Shown here piece by piece: positions 55,625 through 62,132 of a DNA stretch of 64,000 nt; position 1 is the first letter of the stretch, and every line of letters begins with the position of its first letter. The position numbers and the translations under genes are program-made. The notes under the pieces are model-generated. The model was not told the origin of the DNA. It worked only from the letters and a program-made list of their open reading frames with translations, and did no database searches. Origin of the DNA: Escherichia coli (GTDB taxonomy: Bacteria > Pseudomonadota > Gammaproteobacteria > Enterobacterales > Enterobacteriaceae). The DNA is taken from assembly GCF_017348835.2 (NCBI RefSeq), contig NZ_CP071375.1; one strand, 5' to 3'.

Positions 55625-56340
55625 TGCGTTTTTACCGGCCTTTGGGGCGCATCTCGGCGCTCACCTTTGACCTGGATGATACCCTTTACGATAACCGTCC
55701 GGTGATTTTGCGCACCGAGCGAGAGGCGCTTACCTTTGTGCAAAATTATCATCCGGCGCTGCGCAGCTTCCAGAATGAAGATCTGCAACGCCTGCGCCAG
55801 GCGGTACGGGAAGCGGAACCCGAGATTTATCACGACGTGACGCGTTGGCGTTTTCGTTCGATTGAACAAGCGATGCTCGACGCCGGGCTGAGTGCCGAAG
55901 AAGCCAGTGCAGGCGCACACGCAGCAATGATTAGCTTTGCCAAATGGCGCAGCCGAATCGACGTCCCGCAGCAAACTCACGACACCTTAAAACAGCTGGC
56001 GAAGAAATGGCCGCTGGTGGCGATCACCAACGGTAACGCCCAGCCGGAACTGTTTGGTTTGGGGGATTATTTTGAGTTTGTGCTGCGCGCTGGCCCGCAC
56101 GGGCGCTCAAAACCGTTCAGCGATATGTACTTTTTGGCTGCGGAAAAACTCAACGTGCCGATCGGCGAGATCTTACATGTTGGGGACGATCTCACCACTG
56201 ACGTGGGTGGGGCAATTCGCAGCGGAATGCAGGCTTGTTGGATCAGACCGGAAAATGGCGATCTGATGCAAACCTGGGACAGCCGTTTACTGCCGCATCT
56301 GGAAATTTCCCGGTTGGCATCTCTGACCTCGCTGATATAA
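55624..56340 (+). CDS. yigB: HAD-superfamily phosphatase YigB (5-amino-6-(5-phospho-D-ribitylamino)uracil phosphatase)
   Basis: 238 aa. HAD motif I FDLDDTLY and motif IV VGDD. Confidence 0.9.
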
Positions 56341-56349
56341 TCAGCAAAT

Positions 56350-56365
56350 CTGTATATATACCCAG
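56350..56365. promoter_or_regulatory. LexA (SOS) box of uvrD
   Basis: CTGTATATATACCCAG matches CTGT-N8-ACAG apart from one mismatch in the right half-site (CCAG for ACAG), about 60 nt upstream of the uvrD ATG. Confidence 0.8.
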
Positions 56366-56423
56366 CTTTTTGGCGGAGGGCGTTGCGCTTCTCCGCCCAA
56401 CCTATTTTTACGCGGCGGTGCCA

Positions 56424-58586
56424 ATGGACGTTTCTTACCTGCTCGACAGCCTTAATGACAAACAGCGCGAAGCGGTGGCCGCGCCACGCAGCAACCTTCT
56501 GGTGCTGGCGGGCGCGGGCAGTGGTAAGACGCGCGTACTGGTGCATCGTATCGCCTGGCTGATGAGCGTGGAAAACTGCTCGCCATACTCGATTATGGCT
56601 GTGACGTTTACCAACAAAGCGGCGGCGGAGATGCGTCATCGTATCGGGCAACTGATGGGCACCAGCCAGGGCGGCATGTGGGTAGGCACCTTCCACGGGC
56701 TGGCGCACCGCCTGCTGCGTGCGCACCATATGGACGCCAATCTGCCGCAGGATTTCCAGATCCTCGACAGTGAAGACCAGCTACGCCTGCTTAAGCGTCT
56801 GATCAAAGCCATGAACCTCGACGAGAAGCAGTGGCCGCCGCGCCAGGCAATGTGGTACATCAACAGCCAGAAAGATGAAGGCCTGCGTCCGCATCATATT
56901 CAAAGCTACGGTAATCCGGTGGAGCAGACCTGGCAGAAGGTGTATCAGGCGTATCAGGAAGCGTGCGATCGTGCGGGTCTGGTGGACTTCGCCGAGCTGC
57001 TGCTGCGCGCTCACGAGTTGTGGCTTAACAAGCCGCATATCCTGCAACACTACCGCGAACGTTTTACTAACATCCTGGTGGACGAATTCCAGGATACCAA
57101 CAACATTCAGTACGCGTGGATCCGCCTGCTGGCGGGCGACACCGGCAAAGTGATGATCGTCGGTGATGACGACCAGTCAATCTACGGCTGGCGCGGGGCG
57201 CAGGTGGAGAATATTCAGCGTTTCCTTAATGATTTCCCCGGTGCTGAAACTATCCGTCTGGAGCAGAACTACCGCTCTACCAGCAATATTCTGAGCGCCG
57301 CGAACGCCCTGATTGAAAACAATAACGGGCGTCTGGGTAAAAAACTGTGGACCGATGGCGCGGACGGTGAGCCTATTTCCCTCTATTGCGCTTTTAACGA
57401 ACTCGATGAAGCGCGTTTTGTGGTTAACCGCATCAAAACCTGGCAGGACAACGGCGGGGCGCTTGCCGAGTGCGCCATTCTCTACCGCAGTAACGCCCAG
57501 TCGCGTGTGCTGGAAGAAGCACTGTTGCAGGCGAGTATGCCGTACCGTATTTACGGCGGGATGCGCTTCTTCGAACGCCAGGAAATCAAAGATGCGCTCT
57601 CGTATCTGCGCTTGATTGCCAACCGTAACGACGACGCGGCCTTTGAGCGTGTGGTGAATACGCCAACGCGGGGTATTGGTGACCGGACGCTGGACGTGGT
57701 ACGTCAGACATCGCGCGATCGCCAGTTAACACTCTGGCAGGCATGTCGTGAACTGTTGCAGGAAAAAGCCCTCGCCGGACGTGCTGCCAGCGCCTTACAG
57801 CGGTTTATGGAACTGATCGACGCCTTAGCGCAGGAAACTGCCGATATGCCGCTACATGTACAGACTGACCGGGTAATTAAAGACTCCGGCCTGCGCACCA
57901 TGTACGAGCAGGAGAAGGGCGAAAAAGGTCAGACGCGTATCGAAAACCTGGAGGAATTGGTGACGGCAACGCGCCAGTTCAGCTACAACGAAGAAGACGA
58001 AGATTTAATGCCGCTGCAGGCATTCCTCTCCCATGCGGCACTGGAAGCAGGTGAAGGGCAGGCGGATACCTGGCAGGACGCGGTGCAGTTGATGACGCTA
58101 CACTCGGCGAAAGGTCTGGAGTTTCCTCAGGTGTTTATCGTTGGTATGGAAGAGGGCATGTTCCCAAGCCAGATGTCGCTGGATGAAGGCGGGCGTCTGG
58201 AAGAAGAACGCCGTCTGGCCTACGTTGGCGTAACCCGCGCGATGCAGAAACTGACGCTGACCTACGCGGAAACTCGCCGTCTGTATGGCAAAGAGGTTTA
58301 CCATCGCCCGTCGCGCTTTATCGGCGAGCTGCCGGAAGAGTGTGTGGAAGAGGTGCGCCTGCGCGCCACGGTAAGCCGCCCGGTTAGCCATCAGCGGATG
58401 GGTACGCCGATGGTCGAGAACGACAGCGGCTACAAGCTCGGCCAGCGTGTACGCCACGCTAAGTTTGGTGAAGGCACCATCGTCAATATGGAAGGCTGCG
58501 GTGAACATAGCCGTTTGCAGGTGGCGTTCCAGGGCCAGGGAATCAAATGGCTGGTGGCGGCTTACGCCCGGCTGGAGACGGTGTAA
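56424..58586 (+). CDS. uvrD: DNA helicase II UvrD
   Basis: The internal start [38 protein letters not shown] gives 720 aa. DEFQD motif II. Confidence 0.97.
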   Translation: MDVSYLLDSLNDKQREAVAAPRSNLLVLAGAGSGKTRVLVHRIAWLMSVENCSPYSIMAVTFTNKAAAEMRHRIGQLMGTSQGGMWVGTFHGLAHRLLRAHHMDANLPQDFQILDSEDQLRLLKRLIKAMNLDEKQWPPRQAMWYINSQKDEGLRPHHIQSYGNPVEQTWQKVYQAYQEACDRAGLVDFAELLLRAHELWLNKPHILQHYRERFTNILVDEFQDTNNIQYAWIRLLAGDTGKVMIVGDDDQSIYGWRGAQVENIQRFLNDFPGAETIRLEQNYRSTSNILSAANALIENNNGRLGKKLWTDGADGEPISLYCAFNELDEARFVVNRIKTWQDNGGALAECAILYRSNAQSRVLEEALLQASMPYRIYGGMRFFERQEIKDALSYLRLIANRNDDAAFERVVNTPTRGIGDRTLDVVRQTSRDRQLTLWQACRELLQEKALAGRAASALQRFMELIDALAQETADMPLHVQTDRVIKDSGLRTMYEQEKGEKGQTRIENLEELVTATRQFSYNEEDEDLMPLQAFLSHAALEAGEGQADTWQDAVQLMTLHSAKGLEFPQVFIVGMEEGMFPSQMSLDEGGRLEEERRLAYVGVTRAMQKLTLTYAETRRLYGKEVYHRPSRFIGELPEECVEEVRLRATVSRPVSHQRMGTPMVENDSGYKLGQRVRHAKFGEGTIVNMEGCGEHSRLQVAFQGQGIKWLVAAYARLETV

Positions 58587-58600
58587 TTTACAACTCCGTT

Positions 58601-58631
58601 GCCGGATGCGGTGCGCCACACCGCATCCGGC
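58601..58631. terminator. REP-like hairpin, a bidirectional terminator between uvrD and the convergent DUF62 gene
   Basis: GCCGGATGCGGTG-CGCCA-CACCGCATCCGGC, a perfect 13 bp stem. Confidence 0.7.
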
Positions 58632-58640
58632 ATCAGCACC

Positions 58641-59543
58641 TTACTTAGCGCACTTCTTCACATCAATATTCCAGTCAGCACCAGACGCAACCTGATGTTT
58701 CTGCGCGAAATTATCCATATTCAGCGCCACGGAAACATTCAATAAGCTGTTCAGATAGACCATCGGCTGGCCTTCCGGCACATCGCCGAAGCTTGCGACA
58801 TACGGCATTTTCCCTGCGTATTTTTGCCGGGAACCTTCGGAAATGGTCACACACAACGTGTCGTTGAGTTTGATCCCCGCCTGATTCAGCAACTCGTCGC
58901 TGATATTGCTCCAGACGTTGCCGTACTGAATATCGAGAATCGGGATATTGCCCTTCACTTCACCTTTTGTTGCTTTGGCTTTCTGATAAGAAAGTTCGAC
59001 AACTTTTGCAGGAAGCTCTGGCCCCACCTGTTCGAACGTGATCGCCCCGGAAGCCAGACGCGCACCGGTGTAGGCATACACATCACGACCGTGGAAGGTA
59101 TATGACTTTTCGGAACCTTTCAGGCGGTTGGTTTTTTCATCGATTTGCCGGACGCTCTCAATACCCAGCGATTCCGCCACCAAAGTGAGCGTACCGTTAT
59201 CTGGTGAAACGAAGTATTGACCGTTTTTGGTTTTCAGCACTACCGATTTACGGTCTGTACCAACACCAGGATCGACCACACTGACAAATACCGAACCTTG
59301 CGGCCAGTAACTGGCGGTCTGATACAGGCGGTAAGCGCCTTCCCAGATGTTATACGGTGGAATTTCGTGTGTTAAATCAAATATTTTAAGATTATGGTCA
59401 ACGCCGAAAGCGACCCCTTTCATCGCCGAGACGGCACCATCTTTCAGGCTAAAATCAGTTTGTAAAATCAAAGCGTTATCCGCATAAGCGGATGATGATC
59501 CCAGACACGTTAATAAAAATAACGTTGCGAGCGTTTTTTTCAT
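58641..59543 (-). CDS. Exported DUF62 / SAM hydroxide adenosyltransferase-family protein (fluorinase-chlorinase superfamily); not in K-12 as far as I recall
   Basis: 300 aa. Signal peptide MKKTLATLFLLTCLGSSSAYA|DN. Family motifs LQTDFSLKDGAVSAMKGV, THEIPPYNI, VVDPGVGT, SPDNG and TFHGRDVYA. AAGGGA SD 8 nt upstream of the ATG. Confidence 0.85.
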   Translation of the reverse strand: MKKTLATLFLLTCLGSSSAYADNALILQTDFSLKDGAVSAMKGVAFGVDHNLKIFDLTHEIPPYNIWEGAYRLYQTASYWPQGSVFVSVVDPGVGTDRKSVVLKTKNGQYFVSPDNGTLTLVAESLGIESVRQIDEKTNRLKGSEKSYTFHGRDVYAYTGARLASGAITFEQVGPELPAKVVELSYQKAKATKGEVKGNIPILDIQYGNVWSNISDELLNQAGIKLNDTLCVTISEGSRQKYAGKMPYVASFGDVPEGQPMVYLNSLLNVSVALNMDNFAQKHQVASGADWNIDVKKCAK

Positions 59544-59625
59544 TTTTGTTTCCCTTCATTTATCTGATGATTTTCCAGCTGTGTAGCCAGCCCCAGTTTG
59601 TCTGGCCTCCTCGAGTGTACAATGC

Positions 59626-60390
59626 TTAACCTTTCCGCTCGACGGAAATCATGGTGACAAAAGGATAGCGTTGCCACGGGATTGCCCCGCCTTTCATATA
59701 CATATGTGAAATCGTGCCATCAAGATAAAGCAGCTGCTCAACGTTCAGTTTCGCTTTGGCATAACAGGCAAAATCATAAAAATTTGTCGCCTGCTGGCTC
59801 AACAAAAACACGGCATTCCCATGTTTATTAATCCCAACACCGTTACGAATTTTACGTGAGGCGACGTTGGGATGAATACGCGGATTAATTACACTGTTTT
59901 CCATCAACATTGGCCCTGACTGCACCGCAAACTGAATCTCTTTACTGGTTTTGAAGGCATCCAGACGAACGATGCCGACTTTATCTCCCGCGACATAAAA
60001 CACGCCGCCAGGACGGATAAAGAAATTCCCTTCACCTGAAGCGAGATTTAACGCCACCTTCTGCTGACCGTTTTCGATGTACAAACCGAGCGGCGCATAG
60101 CTTTCATCATAGATGCCGCCGTTCATCGCCATCTGCACCTGACCCTGACTATTCATATCCGCCAGCAGAGCATGTAAAGTTCCCCACGCTTCGCCATTGG
60201 CTTTTTGCCAGTACATTTTCACCCGCTCTGTTTGAGGATTAACGGTATACGCCTGTACGGTCAGCGTCGGATCTGAGAGTGCGCAATCATCAGCGGCAAC
60301 AGCAAACAAGGGAAGTAAGGTGAGGGCGAGAAAAATCCGTTTGAGATTCAAGGTGATCATTCCTTTACCAATGAGTAGCCGATGCGCCAT
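59626..60390 (-). CDS. yigE: Exported DUF2233 (phosphodiester glycosidase-like) protein YigE
   Basis: 254 aa. The alternative start MITLNLKRIFLALTLLPLFAVAA at 60360 gives a classical signal peptide. Ends 82 nt upstream of the DUF62 gene on the same strand. Confidence 0.88.
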   Translation of the reverse strand: MAHRLLIGKGMITLNLKRIFLALTLLPLFAVAADDCALSDPTLTVQAYTVNPQTERVKMYWQKANGEAWGTLHALLADMNSQGQVQMAMNGGIYDESYAPLGLYIENGQQKVALNLASGEGNFFIRPGGVFYVAGDKVGIVRLDAFKTSKEIQFAVQSGPMLMENSVINPRIHPNVASRKIRNGVGINKHGNAVFLLSQQATNFYDFACYAKAKLNVEQLLYLDGTISHMYMKGGAIPWQRYPFVTMISVERKG

Positions 60391-60490
60391 TATAGGTCCT
60401 GGATGTGGGATTTTTTTATCCTGTTAGCGACCTTGACGAGTACCAAAAAGCGCGAAGTTCAACTATTGTTCTGTGGTGTTCTGTTGCGTG

Positions 60491-60519
60491 TTGACGGCAA
60501 AATTTTGCTGGCGTAACAT
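60491..60519 (+). promoter_or_regulatory. Candidate corA promoter
   Basis: TTGACG at 60491-60496 and TAACAT at 60514-60519 with a 17 nt spacer. This predicts a leader of roughly 230 nt. Confidence 0.55.
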
Positions 60520-60551
60520 GCGCGCACGATCACTCTAAGAGGACATTCGCC

Positions 60552-60608
60552 TTGGACACACCCAGTAGATACTGGCTCACTATCCTGTCATCCAGGATCA
60601 ACTCCTAA
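60552..60608 (+). CDS. Candidate corA leader uORF (corL-like), 18 codons
   Basis: A TTG start 8 nt after AAGAGGA encodes (M)DTPSRYWLTILSSRINS. Its stop TAA (60606-60608) lies inside the left arm of the hairpin CTAAGGCTAT/ATAGCCTTAG (60605-60636). Confidence 0.4.
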   Translation: MDTPSRYWLTILSSRINS

Positions 60609-60758
60609 GGCTATCCCTTTTTGCTGATAGCCTTAGCGGTTGTCAGCGACCTCAATTTTCCCGTCGCGCTGAGTCAGGCTGTTTAATGGTCTGAAACCCA
60701 ATTTGTTTCTGTGTGCCCACCGAACTGTCCGATATTTTAAGCATTGGGAGTCCCGGTC

Positions 60759-61709
60759 ATGCTGAGCGCATTTCAACTGGAAAATAACCGACTGACCCGG
60801 CTGGAAGTCGAAGAGTCACAACCCCTTGTAAATGCAGTATGGATTGATCTTGTCGAACCGGACGACGACGAGCGACTGCGCGTACAATCTGAACTTGGCC
60901 AGAGCCTGGCAACCCGCCCGGAACTGGAAGACATCGAAGCATCGGCACGTTTCTTTGAAGACGACGACGGCCTGCATATTCACTCCTTCTTCTTCTTTGA
61001 AGATGCGGAAGATCACGCCGGTAACTCCACTGTGGCATTTACCATCCGTGATGGTCGTCTGTTTACTCTGCGTGAGCGTGAACTGCCCGCTTTTCGTCTG
61101 TATCGTATGCGTGCCCGTAGCCAGTCGATGGTAGACGGTAACGCCTACGAGTTGCTGCTGGATCTGTTCGAAACCAAAATCGAACAGTTGGCAGATGAAA
61201 TTGAAAATATCTATAGCGACCTGGAGCAGTTGAGCCGGGTGATTATGGAAGGGCATCAGGGCGATGAGTACGACGAGGCGCTCTCCACTCTGGCGGAACT
61301 GGAAGATATCGGCTGGAAAGTTCGCCTGTGTCTGATGGATACCCAGCGTGCGCTCAACTTCCTGGTGCGTAAGGCGCGTTTACCGGGCGGGCAACTGGAG
61401 CAGGCGCGTGAAATCCTGCGAGATATCGAATCCCTGCTGCCGCATAACGAATCCCTGTTCCAGAAGGTGAACTTCCTGATGCAGGCGGCAATGGGTTTTA
61501 TCAACATCGAGCAGAACCGCATCATCAAAATTTTCTCGGTGGTATCCGTCGTGTTCCTGCCGCCAACGCTGGTTGCTTCCAGCTACGGGATGAACTTTGA
61601 GTTTATGCCAGAACTGAAGTGGAGTTTCGGCTACCCAGGCGCGATTATCTTTATGATCCTCGCGGGCCTGGCACCGTATCTGTACTTTAAGCGGAAGAAC
61701 TGGTTGTAA
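60759..61709 (+). CDS. corA: Mg2+/Co2+ channel CorA
   Basis: The internal start [19 protein letters not shown] gives 316 aa. [10 protein letters not shown] (GMN) signature and two C-terminal TM helices. Confidence 0.96.
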
Positions 61710-61751: not shown

Positions 61752-62132
61752 TCAAAGGCTCCAGGTATTTAACCCTTTTACCTCTTTCTCATAGAACCAT
61801 TTGTTCGTGTTAACAGCAACATAGGCTGCTACGGCAATTCCCAGAATGTTAACGCCAATTAATGCACCAACAAATAGAGATAGAATGCCAAGTAATAGAA
61901 CTATAATTGCTTTTTTCCATAAGCCCAGAACAAATAAATAGATCCAGGAACAGAAGAAAGCAATGAAATTCATTTGAATAGTTAATCGTTGTCTTACTTT
62001 TAATGCTTTAAATGCTGCTTTATATTCTGGTGTTGCTCCCCAGAATCCAGGAAAGCCATGTTGATCATAAAAATTAAATCGGTATTTCTATTTTTCACTT
62101 AATGAACCATCGTTCATATATTCCTTACTCAT
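61752..62132 (-). pseudogene. yigF: yigF (DUF2628 small membrane protein) interrupted by an in-frame amber codon at codon 15
   Basis: The 127-codon frame reads MSKEYMNDGSLSEK*KYRFNFYDQHGFPGFWGATPEYKAAFKALKVRQRLTIQMNFIAFF... The TAG is at 62088-62090 (minus strand). Only the distal 73 codons are open in the ORF track. Confidence 0.7.

Follow-up and report, generated by a model that had tools for sequence, protein, structure and literature searches.

A 300-codon gene lying between uvrD and yigE in Escherichia coli encodes, at a probability that we put at about one half, a Sec-exported and probably disulfide-stabilised hydrolase-type enzyme of the DUF62 family (S-adenosyl-L-methionine (SAM) hydroxide adenosyltransferases) that works in the periplasm. 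The gene was studied in a 64,000-nt stretch of contig NZ_CP071375.1 (RefSeq assembly GCF_017348835.2), referred to here as the window, where it forms an uninterrupted open reading frame (ORF), begun by ATG, in the minus strand (58641-59543). Strain PE164 is 100% identical to the window across the gene stretch, and its RefSeq record names the product 'SAM hydrolase/SAM-dependent halogenase family protein', so that membership of the family was already known. Comparison of the E. coli gene with the Helicobacter pylori copy gave a ratio of nonsynonymous to synonymous substitution rates (dN/dS) of ~0.06 at a dS of ~1.0, and we therefore regard it as a real gene under strong purifying selection. The features of the gene, in window coordinates, are the following.

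58641..59543, minus strand: coding sequence (CDS), stop codon included, of the 300-aa predicted exported DUF62/SAM hydroxide adenosyltransferase-type protein, defined by the ORF call, Pfam, the RefSeq name in PE164 and dN/dS.
59481..59543, minus strand: predicted signal peptide, residues 1-21 (MKKTLATLFLLTCLGSSSAYA), with a predicted signal peptidase I cut AYA|DN, based on its n/h/c organisation, low model confidence in the leader and the leaders of other genera.
59022..59468, minus strand: SAM_HAT_N domain, residues 26-174 (Pfam PF01887, E=3.5e-53, profile positions 2-145 of 145), which holds the ribose-binding Asp30 (in TDF) and PDNG 114-117.
58671..58952, minus strand: SAM_HAT_C domain, residues 198-291 (Pfam PF20257, E=2e-18), which holds LDIQYGN, a variant of the family motif IDxxFGN.
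59271..59273, minus strand: codon of Asp91, triad residue 1, present in 38/38 members of the exported clade and equivalent to PH0463 Asp68 (Asp in 2zbu, Tyr70 in SalL).
59250..59252, minus strand: codon of Arg98, triad residue 2, 38/38, equivalent to PH0463 Arg75 (Arg in 2zbu, Thr in SalL).
59091..59093, minus strand: codon of His151, triad residue 3, within FHGRD, 38/38, equivalent to PH0463 His127 (His in 2zbu, Tyr130 in SalL).
58851..58853, minus strand: codon of Cys231, one half of a clade-specific cysteine pair, in strand 229-236 of the structural model and part of a putative periplasmic disulfide.
58650..58652, minus strand: codon of Cys298, the other half of the pair, immediately after the last beta-strand (291-297).

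The assignment to DUF62, proposed in an earlier reading of the same DNA (the original prediction) made from the letters alone, was borne out by hidden Markov models and by fold alike. Both Pfam domains scored far above their cutoffs (179.7 bits against 26.3 for SAM_HAT_N and 66.9 bits against 25.5 for SAM_HAT_C), and all the motifs that had been quoted are in place: TDF at 29-31, VVDPGVGT at 89-96, PDNG at 114-117 and FHGRD at 150-154, to which LDIQYGN (L203-N209) can be added. A phmmer search against the sequences of the Protein Data Bank (PDB) gave E=4.5e-44 to 2zbu and ~1e-33 to PH0463, and its matches belonged to this family only, with 2zbu followed by chlorinase ClA1 (7ccg), SalL, MJ1651, PH0463 and fluorinases. 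The AlphaFold monomer model, built on a 50-sequence alignment, reached a mean predicted local distance difference test score (pLDDT) of 94 and a predicted template-modelling score (pTM) of 0.87. When the model was compared with the PDB by Foldseek, 40 chains matched at E<=1e-3, all of them DUF62 proteins except the weakest (E=1.6e-3), and the target-normalised template-modelling (TM) score was 0.92 to both 2zbu and SalL.

The residues that bind SAM in this family are also retained. The conserved substrate-binding motifs of DUF62 proteins are an N-terminal Asp (D16 of the fluorinase FlA), a PxNG motif and an IDxxFGN motif whose Asn corresponds to FlA N215 (PMC4859513). The counterparts in the E. 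coli protein are D30, PDNG and the GN motif; D30, N116, G117 and G208 are invariant across the 50-sequence family alignment, in exported and leaderless homologs alike, and N209 is kept in 38/38 clade members. Asp35, which aligns with an Asp of SalL, is retained as well; in the SalL and FlA structures, the equivalent Asp contacts the methionine amino group. Besides these family-wide positions, the exported clade has invariants of its own, W67, K42, Q206, N209 and W211, that vary in leaderless homologs.

What separates the hydrolases of the family from its halogenases is a water-activating Asp-Arg-His triad, D68-R75-H127 in PH0463 (PMC10491745, PMC4859513). In the halogenases, its place is taken by Y70/G131 in SalL and T80/S158 in FlA, and water is excluded (PMC10491745, PMC4859513). 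Since Asp91, Arg98 and His151 stand where SalL has Tyr, Thr and Tyr, the protein is, as judged from these residues, a hydrolase-type member of DUF62 rather than a halogenase. The original prediction had named halide chemistry in the periplasm as one possibility, which now looks unlikely, given also that the NCBIfam fluorinase model TIGR04507 scored only 84.1 bits against a cutoff of 400. A periplasmic SAM-dependent chlorinase or fluorinase, as implied by the names 'adenosyl-chloride synthase' and 'salL', is in consequence the least credible of the readings that we considered, barely worth retaining, even if the fold is the same as that of SalL and FlA, halogenase names derived from UniProt circulate in H. 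pylori papers, and stomach and gut are rich in chloride; characterised members bearing the triad do not halogenate (PMC4859513).

The second line of evidence concerns the N-terminus, which had been described as a textbook Sec signal peptide. The leader is laid out as MKK, TLATLFLLTCLG and SSSAYA, followed by Asp22, that is, an n-region with a charge of +2, a 12-residue h-core with a mean Kyte-Doolittle value of 1.97, and Ala at -3 and -1. Residues 1-22 lie outside the fold of the AlphaFold model, with no secondary structure and a pLDDT of 56-59. Characterised members lack such an extension, in agreement with the original prediction: residues 2-15 of the solved leaderless chains align onto residues 23-29 of the query. 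Identity between the E. coli and H. pylori proteins is 13/22 in residues 1-22 and 251/278 in residues 23-300. Leaders that share the basic/hydrophobic/small pattern but are unrelated in sequence occur in orthologs of ~20 genera and end shortly before the conserved (D/E/N)xALVLQTDF. Their bearers are Aeromonas, eight genera of Pasteurellaceae, Edwardsiella, Thorsellia, metagenome-assembled genomes (MAGs) of Neisseria and Burkholderiales, Cardiobacteriaceae, Halioglobus, Leptotrichia, a Bacteroidetes MAG, Chitinophaga and H. pylori. The leader property has thus been kept across genera, and the leader is, as far as sequence can show, supported as a genuine export signal, from which we infer actual translocation and cleavage.

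The exported member had been presented as an oddity, and in this respect the view changed. A HMMER search of 1.84 billion cluster representatives (50% identity) returned 8778 relatives; the best 150 were inspected and 128 of them had an intact domain N-terminus. Among these 128 nearest representatives, 68 carried a hydrophobic leader (22 of them with a lipobox-like Cys), 50 had no extension and 10 had a non-hydrophobic one, and leaderless paralog-type sequences formed a separate group. The lipobox position varies: the E. coli sequence reads LLTC, in which Thr at -1 is non-canonical, that of H. pylori is the canonical LSAC, and a Cys stands there in 13/38 clade members. The LSAC Cys13 of H. pylori (for instance at 5001-5075 of locus L011) raises the possibility of a lipoprotein there, as against a soluble periplasmic protein in E. 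coli.

The called start codon is preceded by a ribosome-binding site.

59551..59556, minus strand: Shine-Dalgarno sequence AAGGGA, 7 nt 5′ of the ATG, read from the sequence.

The start appears to be correct as called. Starts that remove the leader are either TTG at codon 25, which has no Shine-Dalgarno sequence, or others that lose the essential Asp30. The proposal that the protein stays inside the cell, with its N-terminus as an uncleaved anchor or with TTG codon 25 as the true start of an ordinary cytoplasmic (R)-SAM repair hydrolase, can appeal to the conservation of this TTG in E. coli and H. pylori and to its position exactly at the domain boundary. We hold it to be very improbable in view of the well-spaced AAGGGA before the ATG, the persistence of n/h/c leaders with an AXA-type site in ~20 genera despite sequence turnover, the grouping of leaderless paralog-type sequences on their own, and the cysteine pair.

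The mature chain contains exactly two cysteines, Cys231 and Cys298. Both were found in 35/35 proteobacterial leader-bearing members and both are missing in 3/3 non-proteobacterial exported members, while leaderless homologs have no Cys at either position. This pattern fits that expected for a periplasmic disulfide formed by DsbA, which the protein would then contain. The pair is confined to the leader-bearing proteobacterial clade and provides independent support for a periplasmic location.

The most striking aspect of the gene, and one that the original prediction missed, is a near-identical ortholog in H. pylori. Closest relatives were sought in 5.8 billion proteins and by a scan of one genome per species, from which the 80 best loci (down to 61% identity) were retained. 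After Escherichia and Shigella, the next matches were H. pylori and H. acinonychis, with 88-89% amino acid identity over all 300 residues in the protein search (88-91% overall) and no indels; at the DNA level, the E. coli and H. pylori genes are 83% identical, again without indels. These were followed, in the species scan, by an Enterobacteriaceae MAG (73%), a gammaproteobacterium (76%) and Aeromonas (~74%), and no Campylobacterota other than H. pylori and H. acinonychis appeared among the 80 best loci (at least 61% identity). The H. pylori gene (at 5001-5903 of loci L006-L028) resides in bona fide chromosomes, flanked by mraW/HP0708 on one side and homA on the other and not far from rpoN. It is HP0709 (UniProt O25413; jhp0648), and all H. 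pylori lineages that the genome scan sampled yielded it. Homology to the H. pylori locus extends a little beyond the CDS on both sides.

59544..59569, minus strand: 5′ flank of ~26 nt homologous to the HP0709 locus, CATCAGATAA...GGAAA..ATG, from blastn alignment with loci L011 and L024.
58628..58640, minus strand: 3′ flank of ~6-13 nt homologous to H. pylori; after TAA, E. coli has GTAAGGTGCT and H. pylori has TAA(A/G)TAAGGTGCT.

Neighbour-joining trees of the mature region united Escherichia and Helicobacter in one clade in 100/100 bootstraps, within which the two were each monophyletic (95 and 100 of 100 bootstraps, respectively), and this clade was nested among gamma- and betaproteobacterial sequences. 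The G+C content (GC) of the gene lies between those of its hosts, at 0.46-0.48 in E. coli (flanks 0.52-0.53) and 0.42-0.44 in H. pylori (against 0.38). The simplest reading is an inter-phylum transfer from an Escherichia-like enterobacterial lineage, or from a shared unsampled donor, to the ancestor of H. pylori and H. acinonychis. The 6 bp GGTGCT directly after the stop codon are common to H. pylori, gene-bearing E. coli and the spacer of a gene-less Escherichia, and may be a thin hint at the direction from Escherichia to Helicobacter. No vehicle for the transfer was found among plasmid and phage records. Three 'plasmid' matches (PLSDB NZ_CP134663.1, NZ_CP141089.1 and NZ_AP026896.1) proved to be 4.9-Mb chromosomes of E. 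coli and Aeromonas caviae catalogued as plasmids, and the sole Helicobacter 'phage' match was an H. pylori prophage record drawn too wide, so that the bacterial genes mraW-HP0708-HP0709-homA fall within it. HP0709 adjoins a prophage integration hotspot. We found no description of the Escherichia-Helicobacter relationship, or of the function of the protein, in the searchable literature.

HP0709 has nonetheless surfaced in several H. pylori datasets. It is listed in two outer membrane vesicle (OMV) proteomes, which list ribosomal proteins too, so that we take this as weak support for export. A D/N polymorphism at codon 49 was a match in a gastric-cancer genome-wide association study (GWAS), as a statistical association (PMC6090961). 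The same codon encodes Asp49 in E. coli (window 59397-59399), and most members of the 50-sequence alignment have Asp there. In biofilm cells of H. pylori SS1 the gene, named 'salL', was up 2.87-fold and the methionine ABC permease gene metI, in the same list, 2.18-fold; we read this joint rise as a weak hint of a link to methionine.

In E. coli, the gene is a common but lineage-variable element. The CDS was present in 2413/5426 complete E. coli genomes (44%), at full length in 2412 of them, and was a single copy located between uvrD and yigE in every record inspected. Carriers include O157:H7, avian pathogenic E. coli (APEC) O2:K1:H7, O7:K1 CE10 and a Nissle-derived strain, as well as Shigella; a laboratory K-12-type strain and many others have no such gene. 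The allele of the window is rare, with at least 99% CDS identity in just 2/2413 genomes and 95.8-97.8% in the remainder, and dS reached 0.25-0.37 against divergent Escherichia lineages (loci L004 and L005). A divergent Escherichia without the gene (L003) and a divergent Escherichia sp. with it (L004) were both found; the presence/absence polymorphism is therefore old, or was spread via recombination. Two features describe the spacer in which the gene sits.

58587..59625, no strand: polymorphic uvrD-yigE spacer, 1039 bp here; K-12-type strains have an unrelated 146-bp spacer with two repetitive extragenic palindromic (REP) elements, and homology resumes exactly at the yigE stop codon.
58601..58631, no strand: perfect REP-like palindrome of 13-5-13 nt, GCCGGATGCGGTG-CGCCA-CACCGCATCCGGC, between the convergent uvrD and DUF62 genes.

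The original prediction had put the K-12 spacer below 100 bp; this was an underestimate, as the gene-less spacer measures 146 bp and consists of two REP elements in inverted orientation. In gene-bearing alleles there is a single palindrome, whose left arm equals that of K-12 REP1 and whose right arm equals that of K-12 REP2. A search of this region for RNA families gave a weak match to the REP-derived naRNA4 at 58583-58632 (23.8 bits, under the gathering score). When the 146-bp and 1039-bp spacers were aligned in search of deletion scars, they had in common the REP arms and 9 bp (ATCAGCACC) only. The 10-bp stretch TTTACAACTC right after the uvrD stop codon (58587-58596) is missing from the O157:H7 and K-12-type sequences compared. 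The original prediction of a roughly 1-kb accessory insertion was borne out as regards the size of the spacer and its variation between strains; the gene is not rare, and insertion is one of two readings of the difference, the other being deletion in K-12-like lineages.

A mechanism for the enzyme can be proposed from these data, with export, cleavage, disulfide, trimer, SAM as the substrate, stereoselectivity and salvage role all inferred. After Sec export the leader would be cut at AYA|DN, and the mature 279 residues would adopt the two-domain DUF62 fold, with the homotrimer of the family expected and active sites at the subunit interfaces. Cys231 and Cys298 would be oxidised to a disulfide. 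The substrate bound would be an adenosyl-sulfonium compound, most likely exogenous S-adenosyl-L-methionine and possibly mainly its (R)-sulfonium epimer, which forms spontaneously, is biologically inactive and would build up outside cells because there is no enzymatic SAM turnover there; it is this epimer on which characterised DUF62 hydrolases act. A water molecule activated by Asp91-Arg98-His151 would attack C5′ and, by bimolecular nucleophilic substitution (SN2), release adenosine and L-methionine, both of which could be imported via ordinary nucleoside and methionine transporters. E. coli is not known to take up SAM, and neither are mucosal and gut bacteria known to import it. Such bacteria might thus salvage a purine nucleoside and methionine from the SAM of host cells, food and other microbes. 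That nutritional salvage is the role for which the gene has been selected is a tentative part of the proposal. H. pylori needs a supply of methionine and depends on the salvage of purines, and it is at acidic pH that SAM has its greatest chemical stability; these points make the salvage idea attractive for a gastric organism.

Compared with known systems, the E. coli protein is closest in kind to the characterised hydrolases PH0463 (Pyrococcus horikoshii), MJ1651 (Methanocaldococcus jannaschii), 2zbu (Thermotoga maritima), StDUF62/SaDUF62 (Salinispora), Saci0719 (Sulfolobus) and HVO_0781 (Haloferax). It shares with them both Pfam domains, the fold (TM 0.87-0.92), 30-35% identity, the Asp-Arg-His triad, PDNG and (I/L)Dxx(F/Y)GN; but these enzymes are leaderless, cytoplasmic and act on the (R)-epimer of SAM, whereas the E. 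coli protein has a cleavable-type signal peptide and the Cys pair. SalL and FlA resemble it in fold (Foldseek E ~1e-30; target-normalised TM 0.91-0.92 for SalL and 0.81-0.85 for FlA) and in the SN2 chemistry at C5′ of SAM that is likewise proposed here. They differ in that they lack the triad, desolvate halide and reside in natural-product clusters, while the E. coli protein has the triad and no such cluster. HP0709 is an ortholog of the same length, with the same leader type, triad, Cys pair and flank homology, and is distinguished by its context (mraW-HP0708-HP0709-homA), a lower GC, its canonical lipobox LSAC and its presence in all H. pylori lineages sampled, as opposed to 44% of E. coli. 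The enterobacterial periplasmic scavengers of nucleotides and nucleosides UshA, CpdB and AphA offer a functional analogy only: they too are exported and convert non-importable adenosine compounds into importable nucleosides, but their folds and phosphoester chemistry are unrelated. The SAMase of phage T3, a lyase that destroys SAM and counters restriction in the cytoplasm, has a fold unrelated to DUF62; SAM destruction would be alike, but no PADLOC or phage link was seen here, and neither the DUF62 protein nor YigE gave any PADLOC match to anti-phage defence.

Several observations weigh against a periplasmic SAM-type hydrolase. SAM is a cytoplasmic metabolite. We found no exported DUF62 member with a biochemical or localisation description in the searchable literature, in agreement with the original prediction. 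Salvage cannot be essential, because E. coli and Aeromonas are prototrophic. When three ORFs on either side of 34 loci were clustered (84 neighbours, 22 genera, Pfam), no recurrent transporter, nucleosidase or met/pur neighbour emerged; synteny was seen within families only, with sbcB- and PHP-type genes in Pasteurellaceae and glycogen genes in Neisseria-like MAGs. Neither a riboswitch nor any other Rfam family was found upstream of the gene at 14 diverse loci and in the window, apart from the weak naRNA4 match and one spurious match. Scans for MetJ, PurR, CRP and DeoR operators upstream of orthologs gave best scores of 11-12/16 against maxima of 10-14 in shuffled sequence, and were not convincing. 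Finally, the NCBIfam equivalog models of (R)-SAM hydrolases gave scores well short of their cutoffs (131.8 bits against 350 for NF058624 and 114.6 bits against 470 for NF053629), so that the protein is best treated as belonging to a separate subfamily, whose substrate could differ. It is a homolog, but no equivalog, of the characterised (R)-SAM hydrolases.

The low equivalog scores bring up an enzyme that is exported and active, but on a 5′-activated adenosine other than SAM, which it would detoxify or scavenge in the periplasm. Decarboxylated SAM, adenosyl-sulfonium or -selenonium compounds, 5′-halo-5′-deoxyadenosines and 5′-O-sulfamoyl or nucleoside-antibiotic-type molecules would be candidates. 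The periplasm is an unusual compartment for SAM, and the invariants peculiar to the exported clade (W67, K42, Q206, N209 and W211) would be at home with a substrate of its own; yet the ligand positions that are invariant throughout the family (D30, PDNG and the GN motif) are kept together with Asp35, and the gene context points to no alternative compound. We rate this other-substrate enzyme, including the candidates named, as rather unlikely. Less probable still is a role in host interaction, in which a released or OMV-borne factor would deplete extracellular SAM or make immunomodulatory adenosine and act as an accessory of colonisation or virulence. It would account for the presence of the gene in pathogenic E. 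coli of B2/E/F type, Shigella, H. pylori, Pasteurellaceae and Aeromonas, for the prevalence of animal-associated taxa among the 80 best genome loci, and for the split between the O157:H7, APEC, CE10 and Nissle-derived carriers and the K-12-type strains; the OMV listings of HP0709 and its codon-49 GWAS match would agree with it as well. These OMV lists are unspecific, though, and the GWAS link is purely statistical, while the family has environmental members, such as Chitinophaga and Halioglobus, and the gene is surrounded by neither a secretion system nor a virulence island. Against these proposals, and against the non-exported and halogenase readings discussed above, we prefer an exported hydrolase-type enzyme acting on SAM or its (R)-epimer.

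In the window, the DUF62 gene is convergent with uvrD (plus strand, ending at 58586) and runs in the same direction as yigE (minus strand, 59626-60390), which lies upstream of it. In a simple scan of 58400-60800, the 82-bp spacer between yigE and the DUF62 gene showed neither a consensus promoter nor an intrinsic terminator; the two genes may be cotranscribed. For YigE (Pfam NAGPA, phosphodiester glycosidase), whose N-terminal segment is hydrophobic as well, export is likewise probable; it is found with or without the DUF62 gene, to which it is unlinked in other genera. The uvrD ORF as called mechanically (56235-58586, plus strand) starts at a TTG and encodes 783 aa, while RefSeq UvrD has 720 aa from 56424, the longer ORF being an artefact of the listing. 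Further on, yigF (DUF2628; 61752-62132, minus strand) has an internal stop and the status of a pseudogene in the RefSeq record of the identical strain, and its ORF in the window has just 73 aa (61752-61973).

Upstream of the orthologs of Pasteurellaceae (loci L061, L062, L068, L074 and L054), at ~40-80 nt, a common promoter-like element TAGACA-(15-17)-TAnnAT was observed. Its spacer holds PurR-like half-sites, GCAAACG and CGTTTGC, whose scores are barely above those of shuffled sequence, and the conserved element is probably better read as a TAGACA-17-TAnnAT promoter. Misnaming of the gene is common: 'acetolactate synthase' and 'adenosyl-chloride synthase / salL' appear in records of Shigella, E. 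coli and H. pylori and in papers, and neither name fits the Asp-Arg-His triad.

A large DUF62 subfamily bearing a leader and a Cys pair, a lineage-variable E. coli gene that belongs to it, and a transfer between Escherichia and Helicobacter that created HP0709 seem to be undescribed. The gene splits major E. coli lineages, with O157:H7, B2-type extraintestinal and avian pathogenic and Nissle-like strains, CE10 and Shigella on one side and K-12-type strains on the other, and the relationship between Enterobacteriaceae and Helicobacter is a clean case of gene transfer. SAM chemistry has been held to be strictly intracellular; the export of a full hydrolase apparatus would imply either an extracytoplasmic pool of SAM-like sulfonium compounds or an unknown substrate of this fold. 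As a tentative and wider proposal, exported disulfide-bonded DUF62 enzymes may form an unrecognised class of periplasmic hydrolases of SAM or its epimer that draw methionine and adenosine from extracellular SAM. A single lineage of these enzymes would have been exchanged by an Escherichia-like enterobacterium and the H. pylori/H. acinonychis ancestor and fixed as HP0709 in an organism dependent on external methionine and purines. If true, mucosal surfaces would have a real pool of extracellular SAM that serves as nutrient or signal, and HP0709, which is uncharacterised and widely misannotated and yet appears in a gastric-cancer GWAS, OMV proteomes and a biofilm transcriptome, would gain a biochemical handle on its cancer-associated polymorphism.

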